Assembly (NCBI GenBank): GCA_038245905.1
Contig: JBBRRY010000050.1
Location: forward strand, 1-18,055
Length of the DNA: 18,055 nt
Source: Thermoanaerobaculia bacterium
GTDB taxonomy: Bacteria; Acidobacteriota; Thermoanaerobaculia; UBA5066
Direction: 5' to 3'
Notes under the pieces: model-generated
What the model saw: only the letters and a program-made list of their open reading frames with translations
The model's database searches: none
What the model was told of the DNA's origin: nothing
Made by a program: the position numbers and the translations under genes
Shown here: piece by piece, positions 3,373 through 12,191 of the stretch
How the letters are laid out: each line of letters opens with the position of its first letter
Position numbering within the stretch: position 1 is the first letter of the stretch

Positions 3373-4908
3373 TCAGCGCGTGCGCACGAGAACGTACGGC
3401 CCGCAGCGGGCGACGAAGGGCGGGCGCGTGACGTCTGCGCCCGCGGGTACTTCCTCGATCCCTGCGAGCATGATCTCCGCCTCGCCCGGCAGGACGACGG
3501 GGCGCAGGAGTTCGTTCGCGAGCCGCTGGACGCTGGACCAGTAGTCCGGCGGCCATCCGCGGGGCGTGCGGAGGCCGAGCGGCCGGCCCGGCGGCAGCAG
3601 GAGATCCACCTCGGTCTTCAGCACGGCGAGACAGGTGTACCCCTGTTCCGTCAGGGGGCACGAAACGTCCACGCGGCGGGAATCCAATAGTCCCTGCGAC
3701 AAGGATGCGAACACGCTCCCTTCGGGACGCACGATGTGCGCTCCGTCGAAATGCAGTACGGACCTCCCTGCCGGCGTGAACGACAGCCCCACCTGGAGAA
3801 AGTGTACGGGGGTAAGGGCGAGGAACTCTATTCCGTAGCCCGGATAGGGGATCTGATTCCAGAGGAGAGCCGAGGCGACAAAGCCGGCAGACGCCACGGC
3901 CGCACCCGCGCCGTTCCGCGCAAAGTCACGCAGGCGCTCGAGGCCTTCGGCCAGAAAGCACGAGAGAAACGGAAGGGAATACAGAAGGAAGCGCTTGTCC
4001 GCCCAGTCATAAACGAAGCACCAGAAGAATGTCAGTGCGATCAGCGGCCCGAGGACGGCCGCGCGCCAGCGTCGCGTCGTCGAAGGGGACCCCGCGAACC
4101 GGAGAGCGCCCAGGACGTAGAGAACGAGGGGAACGAGGCCCACGAGTGCCGCGGCGGCGTAGAAGTAGGCTGGAGCGTTCGCAAGAGAAGGCCGGAGGAG
4201 GGCCTCGACGCCGTGGCGCGGCCCGCCCGGGTGGGCACGATAGAACGACCAGCGGAACGCGAGCCAGCCTCCCGCCACGAGGACGAACGCGATCAGTCCG
4301 ACCCAGAGCTCCCTTCGGCGCAGATCTCCCCGCGACACCGCAAGGAGGGCTACACCGAACCCGATTGACGCCGGCACCGCCGCATACGAGAAGAGGAACC
4401 CGGCCCCGAGGCAGAGGCCGAATGCAATCCAGGCTCGCGGCACGCGCCCTGCCCGAACGAATGCGAGCGCTGCGAGGACGAGAAACGGCGCGGCGTACGT
4501 CTCGGCCATGACGCCACGCGAGAACTCCTTGACGTAGCCGTTCGCGAAGAAGAACCAGCAGGCGATCGCCGCGATCCACCCGTCATGGCGCTCGCGCAGG
4601 AGGGCGTAGAGCGCCGCCGTCGAGAGCCCGAGGAAGAGGAAGTTGAAGACGGGCAGCAGCGGGAGCGCGCCAAGTTTCCACAGGGCCGCGATCAGGAACG
4701 GAAGCCCCGGCGGCCTGAGGCTCGGCCCAACCGGCACCCCGGCCCAGAAGAGGCCGTTGTTGATCCAGTCATACGAGTCGGCCCCCAGGTACGGATAGCA
4801 CCAGTTGAGGTCCGCGACGATGAGCGAACGGACGACCGGAAGGGTGCCGAGCGTGGCGAAGACCGCGAGAAGCGCGGGCGGGAGCCGCTCCGATCGAAGA
4901 ACGGACAC
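3373..4908 (-). CDS. Polytopic membrane glycosyltransferase, GT-C fold (PMT_2/ArnT-like), 511 aa
   Basis: About 10 or more hydrophobic segments. Acidic loop after TM1 (GADSYDW), RPPGLPFL, MAETYAAPF and DKRFLLYSLPF match the GT-C pattern. Soluble C-terminal tail. Confidence 0.75.
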   Translation of the reverse strand: MSVLRSERLPPALLAVFATLGTLPVVRSLIVADLNWCYPYLGADSYDWINNGLFWAGVPVGPSLRPPGLPFLIAALWKLGALPLLPVFNFLFLGLSTAALYALLRERHDGWIAAIACWFFFANGYVKEFSRGVMAETYAAPFLVLAALAFVRAGRVPRAWIAFGLCLGAGFLFSYAAVPASIGFGVALLAVSRGDLRRRELWVGLIAFVLVAGGWLAFRWSFYRAHPGGPRHGVEALLRPSLANAPAYFYAAAALVGLVPLVLYVLGALRFAGSPSTTRRWRAAVLGPLIALTFFWCFVYDWADKRFLLYSLPFLSCFLAEGLERLRDFARNGAGAAVASAGFVASALLWNQIPYPGYGIEFLALTPVHFLQVGLSFTPAGRSVLHFDGAHIVRPEGSVFASLSQGLLDSRRVDVSCPLTEQGYTCLAVLKTEVDLLLPPGRPLGLRTPRGWPPDYWSSVQRLANELLRPVVLPGEAEIMLAGIEEVPAGADVTRPPFVARCGPYVLVRTR

Positions 4909-4938: not shown

Positions 4939-5283
4939 CTATGGGTACACGAAGAACGACGGATCGTAGATCAGCGTCCGGTTCCCTGGGTCGCTGTGGT
5001 ACTCCTTCGTCTGTCCGTTCGTCACGTCCGTGACGGCCACCCAGAACTCGACGTCCGTGAACGTCAGGATCGAGATCCAGGCCCGGCCGTTGTTCGTCGC
5101 GGTGCTGATTCGGACCACGAACTCGTACGTGTTCGCGTCCGCAATCCAGAACGCGCCCGTCACGTCCGTGAGCTTCGCCTTCGAGAGGTTCGCCTGCGCG
5201 CCGCCCGCGTACTGGTTCTTCCAGCGCCCCGTCGCGCGGTAACGGCCACCCACGAGGCACATCGTGTTGGCGTCTTCCACGCA
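4939..5283 (-). repeat. Copy 1 of a 345-bp diverged direct repeat encoding the shared C-terminal domain
   Basis: Aligns without gaps to 5991-6335 (offset 1052). By hand count 85 of 114 amino acids are identical, and 5121-5224 vs 6173-6276 shows about 8 mismatches in 104 nt. Confidence 0.95.
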
Positions 5284-5952
5284 GGAGGACGGCGGGTTGA
5301 TGACGGAGCACGCGGACCCGGTGCAGGACACCTTCTTGTCCATGAGGATGAAGTCCGTGTAGAGATAGGTGCCCGACACGTTCTCGCGGAGGTAGAGAAT
5401 CATCCAGTACTGGCCCGCCGGGATCGAGCTTCCGAAGAACGACACGGTGCCTGAATCGACCGGCGCGTACTGATACCCGGACTGCAGGGCCGAGAACGTC
5501 AGGGAGCTCGAGAACGAGTACGACGAGATACTCTGGCCGAAAACGGGCACTGTGCTCGTGAGCGCGACCTTGAGGTCGAGCGGGCTGCTGAAGCCCGAGA
5601 TGCGGTTGTTCGCGATGCTGGCCACGTGGAACGACCCGGAATTTCCGGTCCACGTGATGGAGGCCGGCGTTCCGAGGCAGATCGTGCAGCCGGCCTGGTC
5701 GAGGGCGGCACGGCCCGGCTTCGCCGCTCCGCCCGGCGGCAGATCAGTGTTCAGTCTTCCGGGCACGCCAGGCACGACGGTCCCCCGGCTGTCCGGCGCG
5801 ACGCGCAGGGCGCCCGCTTCCGCTGCGGGCTTCCCGATTCCGTGCGTCGTTTCTTGCACGCCTTCCGCGCGCGAGGGTTCCGCGAGCCCGGCCGTCAGGC
5901 ACAAGGCCAGGGCGGCGAGCCCCCACGAGGAAACGGCTTGAAGTTGCTTCAC
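4939..5952 (-). CDS. Secreted protein of unknown function (about 337 aa): signal peptide, Pro/Gly linker, beta-sandwich-like domain and shared 114-aa C-terminal domain
   Basis: GTG at 5952 lies 8 nt after AAAGGA and gives the Sec signal MKQLQAVSSWGLAALALCLTAGLAEPSRA. An alternative ATG at 5994 overlaps the upstream stop (ATGA). Cys pairs CTIC, CTGSAC and CVEDANTMC. Confidence 0.85.
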   Translation of the reverse strand: MKQLQAVSSWGLAALALCLTAGLAEPSRAEGVQETTHGIGKPAAEAGALRVAPDSRGTVVPGVPGRLNTDLPPGGAAKPGRAALDQAGCTICLGTPASITWTGNSGSFHVASIANNRISGFSSPLDLKVALTSTVPVFGQSISSYSFSSSLTFSALQSGYQYAPVDSGTVSFFGSSIPAGQYWMILYLRENVSGTYLYTDFILMDKKVSCTGSACSVINPPSSCVEDANTMCLVGGRYRATGRWKNQYAGGAQANLSKAKLTDVTGAFWIADANTYEFVVRISTATNNGRAWISILTFTDVEFWVAVTDVTNGQTKEYHSDPGNRTLIYDPSFFVYP

Positions 5953-5990
5953 GACGGATGTCCTTTCGGAAAAGCGCACATCGGACCCGT

Positions 5991-6335
5991 TCATGGGTAC
6001 ACGAAGGTGGTCGGGTCGTAGAGGAGCGTCCGGTTGCCGGCGCCGCTGTGGTATTCGTTCGTCTGTCCCGTCTGGGTGTCCGTGACGCCGATCCAGAACT
6101 CCACGTCCGTGAACGTCGGAATCGCGATCCAGACCCGGCCGTTGTTCGTCGCCGTGTTGAAGCGGATGAGGTACTCGTACGTGCTCGCGTCCGCAATCCA
6201 GAACGCTCCCGTGACGTCGGTCAGCTTCGCCTTCGAGAGCGTCGCCTCCGCGCCGCCCGCGTACTGGTTCTTCCAGTGGCTCGTCACCTTGTAGCGGCCG
6301 CCGACGAGACACATCGTCGCGGCGTCCGGCGTGCA
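5991..6335 (-). repeat. Copy 2 of the 345-bp diverged direct repeat (shared C-terminal domain)
   Basis: Encodes CTPDAATMCLVGGRY...WKNQYAGG...LSKAKLTDVTGAFWIADA...TFTDVEFW...GNRTLLYDPTTFVYP*, preceded by a SAGGGGPGV linker. Confidence 0.95.
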
Positions 6336-8783
6336 GACCCCCGGCCCGCCTCCGCCCGCCGACTTGATCCGGAACACGCCGCGCCCGAAAGTGGCGGCCC
6401 AGAGATCGCCGCTCGACGCCTGGAATCTCAGGTCGTAGACCGGGACGTTCGGTAACCCGCTGTTGAACGTCGCCCAGCTCGCCCCGCCGTTCGCCGATCG
6501 GAAGACGCCGACGTCCGTCCCCACGAAGAGAGCGGATGGATCGGTCGGGTCGACGGCGAACGCGAGGGCGGGGACGTCCGGCAGGTTCGAAGAGATGTTC
6601 GTCCACGTCACGCCAGCGTCGTTCGTGCGGAAGACGTGCTTCGAGGGAGAGCCCGAAAAGCCGGCGAACGTGGCGTATGCGTTGCGACCGTCGGGCGTGA
6701 CCGACAAGATCCGGGTGACCGGGGACGCCGGCAATCCCGAAGAGCGCTGCGTGAAGGTCGCGCCGCCGTCGGTGGAGAAAAATACGCTGCCGATCTTGGT
6801 TCCACCCCACACGGGTCCGGGGTCGCCCCCGGGAGCGTCGAGGGCCGTGAAGAAGGAGTTCGTGATCTTCGCGGCCGAACGCGCCGACCACGCCGCCCCG
6901 GTGCTCCCGAACGACGGATTCGCCCAGACCCGGTTCGTCCCGAAAAAGACCGACGCGGGCGACCCGGCTGCCGCGACCGCGGGCGGATAGAACCCCATGG
7001 TCTCCAGCGGATCTCCTGTATTCGTGTCCATCAACTTTCCGTACGCGGTTGCGTCCGTGTACGTCTCGCTCCCGTCGGAAGAGAACTCGAAAAAGGCGTG
7101 GTAATGGGCCGAGAGAACCTGCGACGGGGAGTCGCGCCGGATCAGGTTGAATCCACCGTCCCCATAGATTCGATCCGACCAGACCATCGTGCCGGTGTAG
7201 CGCTGGCTTCCGTTGTCCTGAGTGCCTCCCATCGCAAATTCGGTGTTCGTCGGATGGGGGACCGTGTTGTTGAACTGCGAGACGTTGATCGTCGCGTTGA
7301 GGCTCGTGAACGACGTCCCGCCATTCGCGCTTCTGTATACGCCGCCGTCATTCCCGACGAACAGCGTTCCGCCGGGCCCGACAACGCCGGCATGCTGGTC
7401 CGGATGCAGGGTCACAGTCCCCGTGTCCGTGGAAACATCCTGAGGGATGGTCCAGGTGTTCGCGCCGTCGGTGCTTCTGTAAAGACTGAGCGCGCCAAAA
7501 TAGACCGTCGAAGGGTTGACCGGGTCGGGTGTGATCCAGTGGTCGTAGGAGCACTGGTTGTTTCCGGCACCCGCGGCGGGGCACATCGTCGCGTCGATGC
7601 TCTGCTTCGTCCAATTCGCGCCGGCATCCGTGGATCTGTAGATCCCGATATGGGCGTTCTTGTCGTCGAGGAACGACGCGTAAACGACCGCGGGGTTCGT
7701 CCTCGTGATACCGAGTTTCGTGTTCCCGATGATGACGCCCGCGTCGTACGTGTACTGCGCGTTCCAGGTCTGACCGAAATTGGTTGATACGTAGATCCCG
7801 CTTTTTCCGCAAGTCCCGCAGCCCCCGGTCGCGAGAAGGAGCCTGTCCGCCTCATTCGGGTCCTGAACCAGATCCGAGACGGTGTGCTCCAGCGTCCTCG
7901 TGAAGGTGACCCCGCCGTCGGTCGAGCGGTAGGCCCCGCCCGGGGAACCGGAGTCTCCTGCGACCACTGGATACATGTAGACGCCGACGACGACGACCTG
8001 GGGATTGGTCGGGTGCGGAGCCACCCGGGACAGAATCGCGTTCGCCGGGAGGTTCGCGTCGACGCGCGTCCAGGTCTCGCCGGTGTCGACGGACTTCAGC
8101 AACCCGCCGCCGAGGTAGATCCCCATCGAGCGGGAAGGCGTGTATTCGGCGTCCGCCGAATCGGCCTCACCGGTGGCCGCGAAGACGATAGACGGATTCG
8201 CCGGAGAAAACGTGACATGGCTCGTCGCGAGCGACGGCGCCGTGTCCGATACGGGCCGCCAGGTGGCGCCGGAGTCCGTCGATTTCCAGATTCCGCCCGT
8301 CGCGGAACCGAGCAGCATGATCGCGGGGTTCGACGGATGGATCGCAATCGAGTCGACCCGCCCCCCCACGACGCCCCAGTTCCGATGGGCATCCGTTTTC
8401 GACTGCATCGGCAGCGGCCCCAGCGACTGCCACGCCGTTCCGGTGAACGTGTAGCTCGACCGCACCGAGGGCCCGACGTCGGAGCGCGTGAACGAACCCA
8501 ATGGTCCCTCGGACATCGAGGGGTCGACGGGCATCTCGCAGGCGTCGCGCAGGGCCTTGAGCCGGTTCGACGGCTGCAAGCGGCCCTCGGCGTCGAGGCG
8601 CAAAGACGTGTTCCACTCCGCGCGCGCGGCAGGGTCGTCTTTCTCGAGCCGCGCCCGATCGGCCGCGCCGCCCTCGGGGGCATTCTGTGCGGCCTGAGCC
8701 GCAACGGGGAGACAGAACGCCGCGAGAGCGAGAAAGAGAGCCAGCCTTGCGAGGCCGGGACGACACGATCGGCAAAACGACAT
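5991..8783 (-). CDS. Secreted BNR/Asp-box repeat beta-propeller protein (VPS10/GH74-like fold) with shared C-terminal domain, 930 aa
   Basis: ATG at 8783 lies 5 nt after AGGAGG. Signal peptide ...LARLALFLALAAFCLPVAAQA. About 11 Asp-boxes (KSTDSGATW, KSVDTGETW, RSTDGGVTF, VSTNFGQTW, RSTDAGANW, RSTDGANTW, RSANGGTSF, FSSDGSETY, FSTDGGATF, RTNDAGVTW, RSANGGASW). Also HPDQH, GGTQDNG and AATFGRGVF motifs. Confidence 0.9.
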   Translation of the reverse strand: MSFCRSCRPGLARLALFLALAAFCLPVAAQAAQNAPEGGAADRARLEKDDPAARAEWNTSLRLDAEGRLQPSNRLKALRDACEMPVDPSMSEGPLGSFTRSDVGPSVRSSYTFTGTAWQSLGPLPMQSKTDAHRNWGVVGGRVDSIAIHPSNPAIMLLGSATGGIWKSTDSGATWRPVSDTAPSLATSHVTFSPANPSIVFAATGEADSADAEYTPSRSMGIYLGGGLLKSVDTGETWTRVDANLPANAILSRVAPHPTNPQVVVVGVYMYPVVAGDSGSPGGAYRSTDGGVTFTRTLEHTVSDLVQDPNEADRLLLATGGCGTCGKSGIYVSTNFGQTWNAQYTYDAGVIIGNTKLGITRTNPAVVYASFLDDKNAHIGIYRSTDAGANWTKQSIDATMCPAAGAGNNQCSYDHWITPDPVNPSTVYFGALSLYRSTDGANTWTIPQDVSTDTGTVTLHPDQHAGVVGPGGTLFVGNDGGVYRSANGGTSFTSLNATINVSQFNNTVPHPTNTEFAMGGTQDNGSQRYTGTMVWSDRIYGDGGFNLIRRDSPSQVLSAHYHAFFEFSSDGSETYTDATAYGKLMDTNTGDPLETMGFYPPAVAAAGSPASVFFGTNRVWANPSFGSTGAAWSARSAAKITNSFFTALDAPGGDPGPVWGGTKIGSVFFSTDGGATFTQRSSGLPASPVTRILSVTPDGRNAYATFAGFSGSPSKHVFRTNDAGVTWTNISSNLPDVPALAFAVDPTDPSALFVGTDVGVFRSANGGASWATFNSGLPNVPVYDLRFQASSGDLWAATFGRGVFRIKSAGGGGPGVCTPDAATMCLVGGRYKVTSHWKNQYAGGAEATLSKAKLTDVTGAFWIADASTYEYLIRFNTATNNGRVWIAIPTFTDVEFWIGVTDTQTGQTNEYHSGAGNRTLLYDPTTFVYP

Positions 8784-8877
8784 CTCTGCCTCCTGAGGCC
8801 GGAGGAACGAATCTATGAATTTCGAACGAAGGACTGGCAGAGATCCTAATCGATGAAGCCGCCGCCGTCCACAACAG

Positions 8878-8903
8878 AGAGGGCCCGGTTTCCCGGGCCC
8901 TCT
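8878..8903 (-). terminator. Stem-loop, probable intrinsic terminator or RNA-stabilising hairpin after the PEGA gene
   Basis: Perfect 11-bp stem AGAGGGCCCGG/CCGGGCCCTCT with a GAAA tetraloop on the minus strand, 31 nt after the stop at 8935. The U-tract is weak (CTGTTGT). Confidence 0.7.
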
Positions 8904-8934
8904 TCGTTTGCTGCGTTGTGTCGCGCGGGCGCGT

Positions 8935-10164
8935 TTACTTCTCGAGCACCACGACGACGTCCACGGGCGCACCGATCCGCACCGTGACATCCACGGTCTT
9001 CGACTTGTAGCCAGGGCGCGTGACGGTGATCGAGTGCGTGCCGGGATCCGTGACGACGCCGCGCGGATTCGCGCCGAGGTCCTCACCCGCGCCGAGATAT
9101 TTGTCGTCCACGTAGACGGCGGCGTCTTCCGGCGTGACCTTGAACCTCATGCGCGCGCGGTTGCCCGCGGCGCGCGGAAGGGGCTCGGGCCGCGCGTCCA
9201 TTCGATCCTCGGGAATCCGCTCGCGCCCTTCGGGCGCACGCTCACTTGGGGCCGGGGCCATGCCGGCCGTGCCGCGATCGCTCCATCCGTCGTCACGCGG
9301 TGCGGGCGCGCGCCGGAGAGCCCGCCGCGGCGGAGGCGGAGCCTCGTCGTCGTCGCCGTCGGGAGCGCCGGCTTCGGACCCGTGCTTCGTGAACACGCGG
9401 CCGAGCGGCGTGCCCTTCGACTCGGGAGCGAACTGGTCGAGCGCGCTCTTGCCGGGCTCGAGCTTCAGCTTCTGGTCGAGACGCACGCGCTGTCCGCGGG
9501 TGACGTCGAGATCCGTGGCGAGCGTCTGATACCCCGGAAGGCGGAATTCGACGTGGTACTTCCCGGGCCCGAGGTAGAGGTAGTCGGGCCTGCCGTCGAA
9601 GTCGTCGGCGGTCCCAATGTATTTGCCGTCGAGGAAAATCTGCGCTTCTTCGGGCGAGACGTCGGTCTTGACGACCGCATATCGGCCTGTGCGCGCAGAC
9701 ACGCCCACGCTTCCATCGGAGCTTCTCTCGATGCTTCTCTCGCCGCTTCCGTCTCCCTCGCCGTCGCCGCCCGTCACGATCGTGACGCTCGGGCCTCCCC
9801 ACCACCACGAGGAGTAGTAGGGCGCATAGCCCCATCCCCAGCCCCAACCGTAAGGGTAGTAGCCCCATCCTCGGCGATACCCGCCCCCATTCCAGCCGCC
9901 GCGCCCACCGCCGCGCCAGCTGCTGCCATGCGAGCCGCTCACTCTGCTGCTGCCGCCCGAGTGGCTAGACCCGCCGGAATAGCCACCGCCGGAATGTCCA
10001 CCGCCGCCGGAATTGCCGCCGCCGCTATGTCCGCCGCCGCTATGTCCGCCGCCGGAATTGCCGCGGGCCTCCGCCGCCCGCGGGGCGAATGCCACGGCCG
10101 CCGCGAGGGCAGCCGTCGCGATCAGAGAGGGTCGAAGGAAGCGAGGAGAAGAGTTCGAGACCAT
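8935..10164 (-). CDS. Secreted PEGA-domain protein (two PEGA domains) with Gly/Ser/His and Gly/aromatic low-complexity N-terminus, 409 aa
   Basis: ATG at 10164 follows GGGAG. Signal peptide ...RPSLIATAALAAAVAFAPRAAEA. PEGA-like units VSPEEAQIFLDGKYIG...LGPGKYHVEFRLPGY and VTPEDAAVYVDDKYLG...DPGTHSITVTRPGY are separated by a Pro/Arg/Asp linker. Confidence 0.88.
   Translation of the reverse strand: MVSNSSPRFLRPSLIATAALAAAVAFAPRAAEARGNSGGGHSGGGHSGGGNSGGGGHSGGGYSGGSSHSGGSSRVSGSHGSSWRGGGRGGWNGGGYRRGWGYYPYGWGWGWGYAPYYSSWWWGGPSVTIVTGGDGEGDGSGERSIERSSDGSVGVSARTGRYAVVKTDVSPEEAQIFLDGKYIGTADDFDGRPDYLYLGPGKYHVEFRLPGYQTLATDLDVTRGQRVRLDQKLKLEPGKSALDQFAPESKGTPLGRVFTKHGSEAGAPDGDDDEAPPPPRRALRRAPAPRDDGWSDRGTAGMAPAPSERAPEGRERIPEDRMDARPEPLPRAAGNRARMRFKVTPEDAAVYVDDKYLGAGEDLGANPRGVVTDPGTHSITVTRPGYKSKTVDVTVRIGAPVDVVVVLEK
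9970..10064 (-). repeat. Imperfect 15-bp tandem repeat encoding (H/N/Y)SGGG pentapeptides
   Basis: ccgccgccgctatgt occurs twice exactly, plus ccgccgccggaattg/atgt variants. Translation: NSGGGHSGGGHSGGGNSGGGGHSGGGYSGG. Confidence 0.85.
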
Positions 10165-10211
10165 TTTGAGACTCCCGGACGGGATTTTCGTCCCCGTCCC
10201 CTGGACAGCAT

Positions 10212-10227
10212 TGCAAGGACCCTGCCC
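10212..10227 (-). promoter_or_regulatory. Putative sigma-54 (-24/-12) promoter of the PEGA gene
   Basis: The minus strand reads gGGCAGGgtccTTGCA against the consensus TGGCACG-N4-TTGCW. The GG-N10-GC spacing is exact, and the site is intergenic, about 48 nt before the ATG. Confidence 0.6.
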
Positions 10228-10265
10228 GAAACCAATGGGCCGACTGTCCCCTGTCCCGGACACCA

Positions 10266-11051
10266 TTATCCGCCCGTTACGACCGGGGCGACCGGGAGAA
10301 GGCCTTCAACGACCTCTCCCGGCTTACTCCGGAGCTGTAGTCCGCCAACCACCGAGTACGCCTCGACGGCGAGCACGTCCGCGGAAAGCGTCATCCTCCG
10401 ATATGCGCCGAGGCCCGTCGCGAACCCCGCGTAGTCGCGTGCGGCCGTTTGGGACGCGAATGCGTCCATCGCGCGTTCCTTTCGGGCCAGAACCCGGGTG
10501 ATGTCGACCAGGAAGTTCGGGCGGAACGGCTGGGAGAGCTCGAAAAAGGCCACCGTCGCCGCGTCCAGAATCCGCACGGCCGCGTCGGAGGCGGGACGCG
10601 CCGCGACCCGAAAAAGCGCAACGGCGACCGCGCGATGGTCGGGATGGGTCTCGACCGGAGAGGGAGCGAAGACGAGGTCCGGCGCCGCCTCGACGAGATA
10701 CCGGGCGAGGAGCGCTTCGATCTCAAGGAGCCGGTCCGCGGCGCCGCGATCGGGAATGCCTCCCGCGTGCACCGTCCCGCCGCCCAAGGCTTCGAGGGCG
10801 CGCCGCGACTCCTCCATGCGCGCCGACGCGATCCGCTCGCGCTCTTCCTCGTTCCGCGCTCCTGCGGCCCCGTCCGTCACGATGACGACGTCCACGCGGG
10901 CCCCGCGCTCGAGGAGGTCCGCGAGGGCGCCTCCGCAGCCGAAGACTTCGTCGTCCGGGTGCGGCGCGAAAACGAGGACGCGCTTCCCCGAAAAAGTGGA
11001 GGCCGCATAGGGCACCAGGCTCCTCTCGTCGGGAAAATCCGGAGGCCGCAT
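10266..11051 (-). CDS. PIG-L/LmbE family metal-dependent de-N-acetylase, 261 aa
   Basis: VLVFAPHPDDEVFGCGG, VTDG, R-x-x-E (ARMEES), ETHPDH and KERAMDAFASQ: the full family motif set. Confidence 0.95.
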   Translation of the reverse strand: MRPPDFPDERSLVPYAASTFSGKRVLVFAPHPDDEVFGCGGALADLLERGARVDVVIVTDGAAGARNEEERERIASARMEESRRALEALGGGTVHAGGIPDRGAADRLLEIEALLARYLVEAAPDLVFAPSPVETHPDHRAVAVALFRVAARPASDAAVRILDAATVAFFELSQPFRPNFLVDITRVLARKERAMDAFASQTAARDYAGFATGLGAYRRMTLSADVLAVEAYSVVGGLQLRSKPGEVVEGLLPVAPVVTGG

Positions 11052-11057
11052 CCCGGA

Positions 11058-11074
11058 AGCTTACCGCCTACAAT
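11058..11074. promoter_or_regulatory. Back-to-back -10 boxes (bidirectional leaderless promoter)
   Basis: Minus strand: TAAGCT(11063-11058)-N6-ATG(11051). Plus strand: TACAAT(11069-11074)-N7-GTG(11082). The divergent gap is only 30 nt with no Shine-Dalgarno sequence on either side. Confidence 0.65.
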
Positions 11075-11081
11075 GAGATCC

Positions 11082-12191
11082 GTGGTCGATCAGGCGGACG
11101 CTCCGCGCGTTTCCGTGCTCCTCCGGACGAAGGACAGGCCGGGCTTTCTCGCCGAGGCCCTGGACAGCCTGCGGCGCCAGACGTTCACGGACTTCGAGAC
11201 GGTCCTCGTGAACGACGGCGGCGCCGTGCCCGAAACGCTCCTCGTGTCTCCTCCGGGACGCGGACTCTCCGTCGTCGTGCCGCCGGTGCCCGGCGGGAGA
11301 ACGCGCGCCCTGAACGCGGGCCTCGCGGCCGCCCGCGGCACGTACGTGGCCTATCTCGACGACGACGACCTCTATCTGCCCGGGCATCTCGACACGCTCG
11401 TGCGTTTTCTCGACGGCAGCGACGAGTACAAGGCCGCCTACACGTCCGTCCGCCAGATCGAGCAGGTGCTCGGCGACGATGGGCGTTACCGGGACGGACG
11501 CGAGATCACGATCTATGGCAGGCCATTCGACGCCGGGCGTCTCCTTTACAAGAACGACATTCCCCTCATCGGCCTCTTGCACCTTCGGGCGCTCGCGGAG
11601 GAGATCGGCGGCTTCGACGAGACGTTCGACCTGTTCGAGGACTGGGATTTCCTCATTCGCCTTTCGGCGAGGACGCGGTTCCATCACCTGCCGGCCGTCA
11701 CCGCCGTTTACAGGCTCCGGAACGACGCGTCGAACATCTCCGCCGCGCAGCCGTGGCACGCGGGGGACGCGCAGACGGCCCGCCGCAGGCTCTTCGAGAA
11801 GCACGCGGCAAGAAGATCGGTCTCGACGGAGATGGCGCTCGTCGACAGCCTCGAGACCGACCTCTACGCCCTCCGCGATGCCACCGCCGCGTCCCGCGCA
11901 GAGGCCGAGACTCTCCGGCAAGCCCTCGTGGACGCACAGGCCGAAATCGAGGTGGGCCGGGCGGCTCTCGTCGCGGCCGGCGCCCGAGAGGCCGGGCTTC
12001 GCACGTCACGGGACCACGCCGCGCGCCAGACCGAGGAGTCGGCGACACGCGAGCAGGCGCTCGCCGTCGAAAACGTCCGTCTTCAGGCCGAGGCCGCCCG
12101 CCTCTTCGCCACCGTCGACGACATGAACCGATCCCTCGCGTGGCGCCTCTTCACGCCGTGGTGGAAGCTCAAGGAGCTCCTGAAACGATGA
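11082..12191 (+). CDS. GT2 glycosyltransferase with long C-terminal coiled coil and Trp/basic terminal helix (about 369 aa)
   Basis: VSVLLRTKDRP, LVNDGG, ALNAGL, YVAYLDDDD, GGFDETFDLFEDWDF, then about 100 aa of Ala/Glu/Arg helical sequence and MNRSLAWRLFTPWWKLKELLKR. Start is GTG 11082 or ATG 11073. Confidence 0.92.
   Translation: MVDQADAPRVSVLLRTKDRPGFLAEALDSLRRQTFTDFETVLVNDGGAVPETLLVSPPGRGLSVVVPPVPGGRTRALNAGLAAARGTYVAYLDDDDLYLPGHLDTLVRFLDGSDEYKAAYTSVRQIEQVLGDDGRYRDGREITIYGRPFDAGRLLYKNDIPLIGLLHLRALAEEIGGFDETFDLFEDWDFLIRLSARTRFHHLPAVTAVYRLRNDASNISAAQPWHAGDAQTARRRLFEKHAARRSVSTEMALVDSLETDLYALRDATAASRAEAETLRQALVDAQAEIEVGRAALVAAGAREAGLRTSRDHAARQTEESATREQALAVENVRLQAEAARLFATVDDMNRSLAWRLFTPWWKLKELLKR

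Follow-up and report, generated by a model that had tools for sequence, protein, structure and literature searches.

The window analysed here, 18,055 nucleotides long, is contig C50 (JBBRRY010000050.1; GC content about 68%) of a 3.8 Mb, 96.4% complete genome of a Thermoanaerobaculia bacterium (GCA_038245905.1). Two adjacent genes on its minus strand, which we call A and B, encode putatively secreted proteins that carry unrelated cargo and end in the same C-terminal domain (CTD) of 114 residues. This domain, the family to which it belongs and its possible role at the cell surface are our subject.

Gene B (5991..8783) encodes a protein of 930 residues that, from its translation and from Pfam, is a secreted BNR/Sortilin-Vps10 propeller followed by a CTD; Sortilin-Vps10 matches at E 1e-27 together with BNR families, and an NCBIfam F510_1955-like match falls under the cut-off. 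Its N-terminus reads by eye as a Sec signal peptide, MSFCRSCRPGLARLALFLALAAFCLPVAAQA|AQ, of about 31 residues (8691..8783, minus strand) with likely cleavage at AQA|AQ. Gene A (4939..5994) encodes, by translation, a secreted protein of 351 residues, with a cargo domain ahead of the CTD for which no family was found in Pfam or NCBIfam; its N-terminus, ...VKQLQAVSSWGLAALALCLTAGLA..., likewise reads by eye as a Sec signal peptide. Gene A has two alternative starts, a GTG at 5952 giving 337 residues (4939-5952) and an ATG at 5994 giving 351 residues, and the gene call in the genome collection (P0153) uses the ATG. The ATG start codon (5994-5992) overlaps the stop codon of B (5993-5991) in an ATGA (5991..5994, minus strand), and from this overlap the two genes appear to be translationally coupled.

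The CTD of B occupies 5991..6335 (114 codons and the stop codon at 5991-5993) and that of A occupies 4939..5283 (114 codons and the stop codon at 4939-4941), both on the minus strand. When A and B are compared by BLASTP, the sole significant segment is ungapped and identical at 86 of 117 positions (E 8e-59), the next segment having an E of 3.2, and over the last 114 residues the identity is 75%. The initial annotation of the window had claimed that the two proteins are alike only in a signal peptide and an ungapped terminal domain, and both BLASTP and direct reading of the translations bear this out. Direct reading also agrees with its description of the motifs, since both tails end in ...YDPxxFVYP-stop and have neither a hydrophobic helix nor a basic end. 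The Pro/Gly/Ser-rich linker that it described ahead of the domain is present in both proteins (the short stretches INPPSS and SAGGGGPGV), but the description does not extend to the family, in which Pro, Gly and Ser are no more frequent over the 25 positions ahead of the domain than in the remainder of the protein.

The cargo of A (residues about 85-235) is common to 95 collected homologues, each about 330-370 residues long and all ending in a CTD. BLAST found no link between this cargo and the InhA-like MAM domain of other carriers, and a single-sequence AlphaFold2 model of the whole of protein A (pLDDT 33.4) was unusable.

The CTD is not confined to these two genes. A profile search of 1.84 billion cluster representatives found 5,116 proteins at E<=1e-3, of which 2,010 reach E<=1e-10 and 57 reach E<=1e-30. 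A and B match the profile of the family at E 2e-44 and 1e-44 respectively. Members share a signature that spans about 110 residues and comprises a C-x7-C-L...R motif close to the beginning and the conserved positions G43, W69, D86 and Y95, all of which A and B possess. The N-terminal cysteine pair is nearly always present and a third cysteine occurs in 166 of 561 copies; the same 561 copies are acidic (median pI 5.1, 88% net negative), and the domain has an aromatic content (F/W/Y) of 13%. The close subfamily always closes with the same ...YDPxxFVYP tail. The organism names seen among the matches are all Thermoanaerobaculia or Acidobacteriota metagenome-assembled genomes but one, labelled Solirubrobacteraceae, which agrees with the mention in the initial annotation of similar tails in Thermoanaerobaculia.

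No existing model describes this family in the databases that we searched. The tails of A and B have no Pfam or NCBIfam match at E<=1 beyond chance level (for B, Lectin_C at E 0.22), no model covers the domain in the 84 members scanned with Pfam or the 62 scanned with NCBIfam, and neither a two-sequence nor a 32-sequence profile matches any PDB chain sequence. Public names of members come from their cargo (PKD, NBR1-Ig-like, CARDB, choice-of-anchor D, ELWxxDGT), the nearest clusters in the ESM Atlas are unnamed Acidobacteriota proteins with no usable named cluster among them, and full-text literature searches listed no paper on C-terminal domains or signal peptides of secreted proteins in Thermoanaerobaculia, nor any on C-terminal protein sorting by exosortase in Acidobacteria. 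The CTD is thus a real and large family, centred on Thermoanaerobaculia, that has no model in Pfam, NCBIfam or PDB.

Members of the family have the architecture of exported proteins. Using a signal-peptide-like criterion of a basic residue followed by a hydrophobic N-terminal stretch, 241 of the 292 members that begin with M and have at least 250 residues qualify, against 13 of 292 internal control stretches, and most of the exceptions resemble truncated metagenomic fragments. In 336 of 372 collected proteins the last copy of the domain ends no more than 5 residues before the C-terminus; the distance is 6-20 residues in 9, 21-60 in 3 and more than 60 in 24. The cargo is diverse, including peptidases (S8, sedolisin or S53, M6, M10, M12B and trypsin-like), neprosin, propellers of the BNR, NHL, Kelch and ELWxxDGT types, glycoside hydrolases GH39 and GH42, phosphatases, esterases, cupredoxins, and PKD, BACON and Calx-beta domains. 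The suggestion that the CTD is a portable module on secreted proteins of unrelated cargo therefore stands; the domain matches no characterised family, extends well beyond a pair of neighbouring genes, and is not found mostly internally or in cytoplasmic proteins.

Among the 372 proteins, 166 have one copy per chain, 200 have two, one has three and five have four, in a set biased to two-copy proteins, because the scores of both copies add up in the member lists, and with one contributing list restricted to proteins of 185-590 residues. In three genomes assembled on one or two contigs, 70 units resolve into 30 tandem pairs, 40 singles and no triples. The gap between tandem copies has a median of 35 residues. 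In tandem proteins the nearest relative is the copy at the same position in another protein for 142 of the 200 first copies and for 166 of the 200 second ones, which indicates that the tandem pair spreads as a unit; first-copy and second-copy profiles hardly differ.

The distribution of the domain among genomes is uneven. This genome has exactly two copies, profile search included, and 19 of the 24 other genomes of the genus have 1-4. Within the class the domain is present in 49 of 91 genomes and absent from 42: all 13 genomes of family f10 carry it, with 34 to at least 50 matches each, where 50 was the scoring cap and up to 137 candidates were seen, and none of the 12 genomes of family f11 does. 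In a sample of 301 genomes of the phylum, with at most 15 candidates scored per genome, it occurs in 18 of 29 class members and in 15 of 272 others, the latter with 1-3 copies. Two genomes flagged as unpublished have 47 (G025) and 15 copies (G030), and no conclusion here rests on them alone.

An AlphaFold2 model of the CTD made from the 32-row alignment is confident (pLDDT 96.5, pTM 0.89) and predicts an all-beta domain of ten strands. Against PDB, Foldseek returned nothing at E<=1e-3 (best TMq 0.39), and the highest Z from VIA-align over 48,161 chains was 5.9, six chains reaching Z>=5 and none Z>=8, which is below the usual background of that tool. A search of BFVD returned levivirus coat proteins only, at TM 0.3-0.4. 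A solved C-terminal domain of the type IX secretion system (T9SS) is absent from the Foldseek and VIA-align rows listed, and a missing match of this kind does not exclude an Ig-like fold. The fold is therefore confidently predicted and has no clear solved counterpart.

Complex prediction supports a pairing of the A and B tails, without separating hetero- from homo-pairing. The CTD of B modelled with that of A scores 0.77, and the best of three controls scores 0.00. Of 157 solved complexes 116 reached this mark, as did 2 of 215 mismatched pairs, counts that apply only roughly because our own alignments were used. Contacts agree between runs to at least 98%, the partner has a pLDDT of at least 90, and the predicted interface is two-fold symmetric, formed by residues 38-44, 50-60, 71-77 and 102-106 of both chains. 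A related genome joins the two proteins outright: in G014 (contig C3, locus 128500-148400), the open reading frame (ORF) 6772-10644 encodes a fusion of 1,290 residues in which a B-like propeller with PKD and tail is followed by an A-like protein with its tail.

The two genes lie in a surface-glycan locus, as the initial annotation had it. Around them the window encodes glycosyltransferases of the GT1, GT2 and GT-C (PMT_2) types, a PIG-L deacetylase, a Wzt ATPase with a Wzt_C domain and an exported PEGA protein. The GT-C glycosyltransferase (3373..4908, minus strand; Pfam PF13231, E 1.9e-7) is directly downstream of A, and the exported PEGA/CarboxypepD_reg protein (8935..10266, minus strand; assigned from Pfam, translation and synteny) is directly upstream of B. 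In nine of the ten genus loci examined, the PEGA and PMT_2 genes flank the CTD gene or genes; in the remaining one (G020) a lone carrier lies elsewhere. The PEGA protein, encoded in every case next to and upstream of the tail-bearing genes of the genus, contains a long Gly/Ser/His repeat (GGHSGGG...) and then a Trp/Tyr/Gly-rich stretch.

Within this arrangement the A-like protein is the constant member, with 51-67% identity in most loci and 35% in one, and is missing from G008. The slot before it varies. In G014 and G003 it holds a BNR propeller that shares 61-71% identity with B, in G001 and G021 a more distant propeller (only 29-30%), in G011 a neprosin with PKD and in G006 an S8 subtilase, and across these six loci the tail in that slot is 75-89% identical to that of B. 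In other words, the slot looks like a site of cassette exchange, in which the cargo is swapped and the tail retained. The PMT_2 orthologue is present in 19 of 24 genomes of the genus, and tail and PMT_2 are largely present or missing together, two of the mismatches having PMT_2 at a contig edge. In G007 and G008 the match to a tail is split into two adjacent pieces, and the PMT_2 gene of G007 is broken into three with a TGA; frameshifts or decay of the locus are possible explanations.

Several known systems attach a conserved accessory domain to varied exported proteins. The type A C-terminal domain of T9SS (TIGR04183/Por_Secre_tail) in Bacteroidota is, like the CTD, small, all-beta and placed at the extreme C-terminus of unrelated Sec-exported proteins, and it too is lineage-restricted, has tens of carriers per genome and lacks a membrane helix. 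Unlike it, the CTD has no match to the T9SS models (TIGR04183, PF18962) and occurs in tandem pairs, at times ahead of the cargo; a single, strictly C-terminal copy describes A and B and does not describe the family. The best match to TIGR04183 in this genome lies elsewhere and, at 21.4 bits, is under the 23-bit cut-off, and SprA_N (PF14349), a marker of the SprA/Sov translocon of T9SS, had no match in this genome or in 14 control genomes, a search that had no positive control. The genome does encode two secretins, which indicate a secretin-type outer-membrane channel and are compatible with export by type II secretion. The tags recognised by sortases and exosortases (LPXTG, PEP-CTERM, GlyGly-CTERM) consist of a short motif, a hydrophobic helix and a basic tail, a build that the YDPxxFVYP ends do not share, as these have no hydrophobic stretch and no basic residues. 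The CTD is thus most likely not a T9SS- or sortase-type signal.

The likenesses to non-covalent modules are of a different kind. SLH is a modular, non-covalent anchor on many exoproteins, a helical domain whose functional unit is made from several copies, either in one chain or by oligomerisation. The CTD differs in that it is predicted to be all-beta and its unit would be a pair, not a triplet; there is no PF00395 match in A, B or anywhere in this genome. Type I dockerins of the cellulosome are small, acidic, usually C-terminal modules on varied secreted enzymes, are better conserved than their cargo and serve protein-protein assembly. The CTD shares these outward features, whereas its predicted fold is beta and not a pair of Ca-binding helices, it has no Pfam dockerin match, and we identified no cohesin-like partner or scaffold. 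PPC (PF04151) and PKD resemble it as beta-sandwich accessory modules at the C-terminal end of exported hydrolases. However, PKD stands directly upstream of the CTD in many members and PF04151 occurs in P0300-P0306, so that the CTD is an additional, separate module in the same chains. None of the dockerin, PPC, PKD or carbohydrate-binding module (CBM) models of Pfam covers the tail in A, B or the 84 scanned members.

The comparison with SLH can be carried to whole genomes. Sister-genus genomes (G027, G031, G039, G040, G373 and G380) have 52-69 or more scored SLH matches and put SLH on the same kinds of cargo (S8, Kelch, NHL/Vgb propellers), and a search of this genome, positive in four control genomes, gave no SLH match. 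The 13 f10 genomes likewise yielded none. Among the 25 class genomes with at least ten tail copies, 21 have at most two SLH matches and four have at least 52. We take the use of SLH on the same cargo kinds in sister genera, together with the abundance of CTDs in the SLH-free family f10, as anchor-like usage.

Based on these observations, we propose that the CTD is a self-contained, disulfide-stapled, acidic, all-beta extracellular domain whose working unit would probably be a pair, formed either by tandem copies within a single chain or by two proteins that contribute a copy each, the latter form being the one predicted for A and B. This pair may act as a non-covalent retention or assembly module that keeps Sec-exported enzymes and binding proteins at the cell envelope, and in this genus the likeliest ligand would be the polysaccharide made by the surrounding locus. 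We advance this proposal, the best supported of the accounts considered, tentatively, as a possibility that falls somewhat short of being probable; the anchoring role is suggested by architecture and genomic context, and the pairing by the modelled complex.

A number of our own results weigh against this proposal. No ligand, partner or cleavage has been observed. The domain is acidic, and many binders of wall polymers are basic. With this query, none of 16 genomes from the other genera of the order yielded the PMT_2 orthologue, though there are up to 47 copies of the domain there; the ligand therefore cannot generally be a product that needs this enzyme, and the idea that the CTD is a general target of the adjacent GT-C was rejected on the same ground. 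The alternation of SLH and CTD follows lineage and is partial, not strict, as the two occur together in several f2 genomes and 23 of the 91 class genomes lack both. The predicted interface shows no extra conservation (2.49 bits against 2.43 bits in other columns, p 0.39), and the model can dock two homologous beta domains by default. We considered that A- and B-type tails might be the split halves of a tandem pair and rejected this, since the profiles of first and second copies differ by less than 1 bit and give no separation, which leaves a specificity for hetero-pairing unsupported. Finally, in the three genomes on one or two contigs another unit lies within 3 kb of only 6 of 40 single-copy units, and most single-copy units would have to self-pair or act alone.

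The initial annotation put forward a candidate protein-sorting or surface-anchoring system. One such reading makes the CTD a C-terminal sorting signal, read and possibly removed by an undiscovered outer-membrane machinery for secretion or attachment, as in T9SS. The extreme C-terminal position in 336 of 372 proteins, the constant ...YDPxxFVYP tail of the close subfamily, the presence of tens of carriers in some genomes and none in others of the same class, and a domain better conserved than cargo that is unrelated between carriers would all be expected of such a signal. We nevertheless consider it unlikely, and a dedicated sorting system is not supported as stated: much of the family carries the domain, as a rule, in tandem pairs, and the 24 proteins with more than 60 residues after the last copy mostly have a tandem pair just behind the signal peptide and the cargo downstream. 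Only two carriers exist in this 96%-complete genome, and the T9SS markers sought (Por_Secre_tail at its cut-off, and SprA_N in the uncontrolled search) were not found. Nor did conserved candidate machinery appear beside the 18 carrier loci of G027. The recurrent neighbours there, namely SLH proteins, Ser/Thr kinases and TonB-receptor-like barrels, were rejected as partners, as all are abundant families and none is convincing; only one carrier in these loci has cargo homologous to that of an SLH protein. The interpretation of the initial annotation as a whole is thus partly supported.

Two other explanations were weighed. Were the domain a CBM- or lectin-like module, it would direct hydrolases to insoluble polymers in the environment and not to the cell's own surface. 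Many carriers are hydrolases, among them GH39, GH42 and BNR glycosidase-like proteins; aromatic residues are abundant in the domain, which is also acidic, features often seen in Ca-dependent sugar binders; and 23 of 50 weak VIA-align neighbours are accessory beta-sandwiches of carbohydrate-active enzymes, all at Z<6 and within background. However, the cargo is wider than glycan-active enzymes (peptidases, phosphatases, cupredoxins, and NHL and ELWxxDGT propellers), no CBM family matches, and the carriers in the genus are fixed in a glycan-synthesis locus whatever their cargo, all of which makes this explanation improbable in our judgement. About equally improbable is that the CTD serves purely for oligomerisation, dimerising secreted proteins with no part in anchoring or targeting. 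The complex score and its controls (subject to the approximate benchmark), the ATGA overlap of A and B, the fusion in G014 and the mostly even copy numbers per chain fit such a function, but tandem pairing within a chain, the commonest form in much of the family, would oligomerise nothing, and the interface is not preferentially conserved.

A bolder version of the retention proposal is that Thermoanaerobaculia have a form of surface display of their own, in which a two-copy beta module of new fold, present on at least 50 proteins in some genomes, would tether a large part of the exported hydrolases and adhesins to a surface glycan or scaffold through an undiscovered receptor, with the glycan locus of this genus keeping one plug-in slot. 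We regard this as conceivable and rather doubtful. If true, it would be a functional counterpart of the SLH, dockerin or T9SS C-terminal domain systems.

Whatever its function, the family marks an annotation gap: it counts more than 5,000 clusters (at 50% identity), single genomes hold as many as 50 copies or more, and there is no Pfam, NCBIfam or PDB entry for it. In consequence, a widespread class of soil and sediment has its exported proteins annotated by their cargo only. Should the CTD prove to be a retention or assembly module, it would define how extracellular enzymes are organised in these uncultured Acidobacteriota and would add an anchoring principle to those of SLH, dockerins, T9SS C-terminal domains and sortase tags. 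The predicted pairing and the cargo-swapping slot offer concrete starting points for experiments.

Elsewhere in the window, the plus-strand GT2 ORF (10449-12191) overlaps both the PIG-L gene (10266-11051, minus strand) and a minus-strand ORF of 286 residues (11061-11921) that has no family match. In DNA of such high GC content the latter probably arose as a shadow frame of GT2, whose real start probably lies after 11051.

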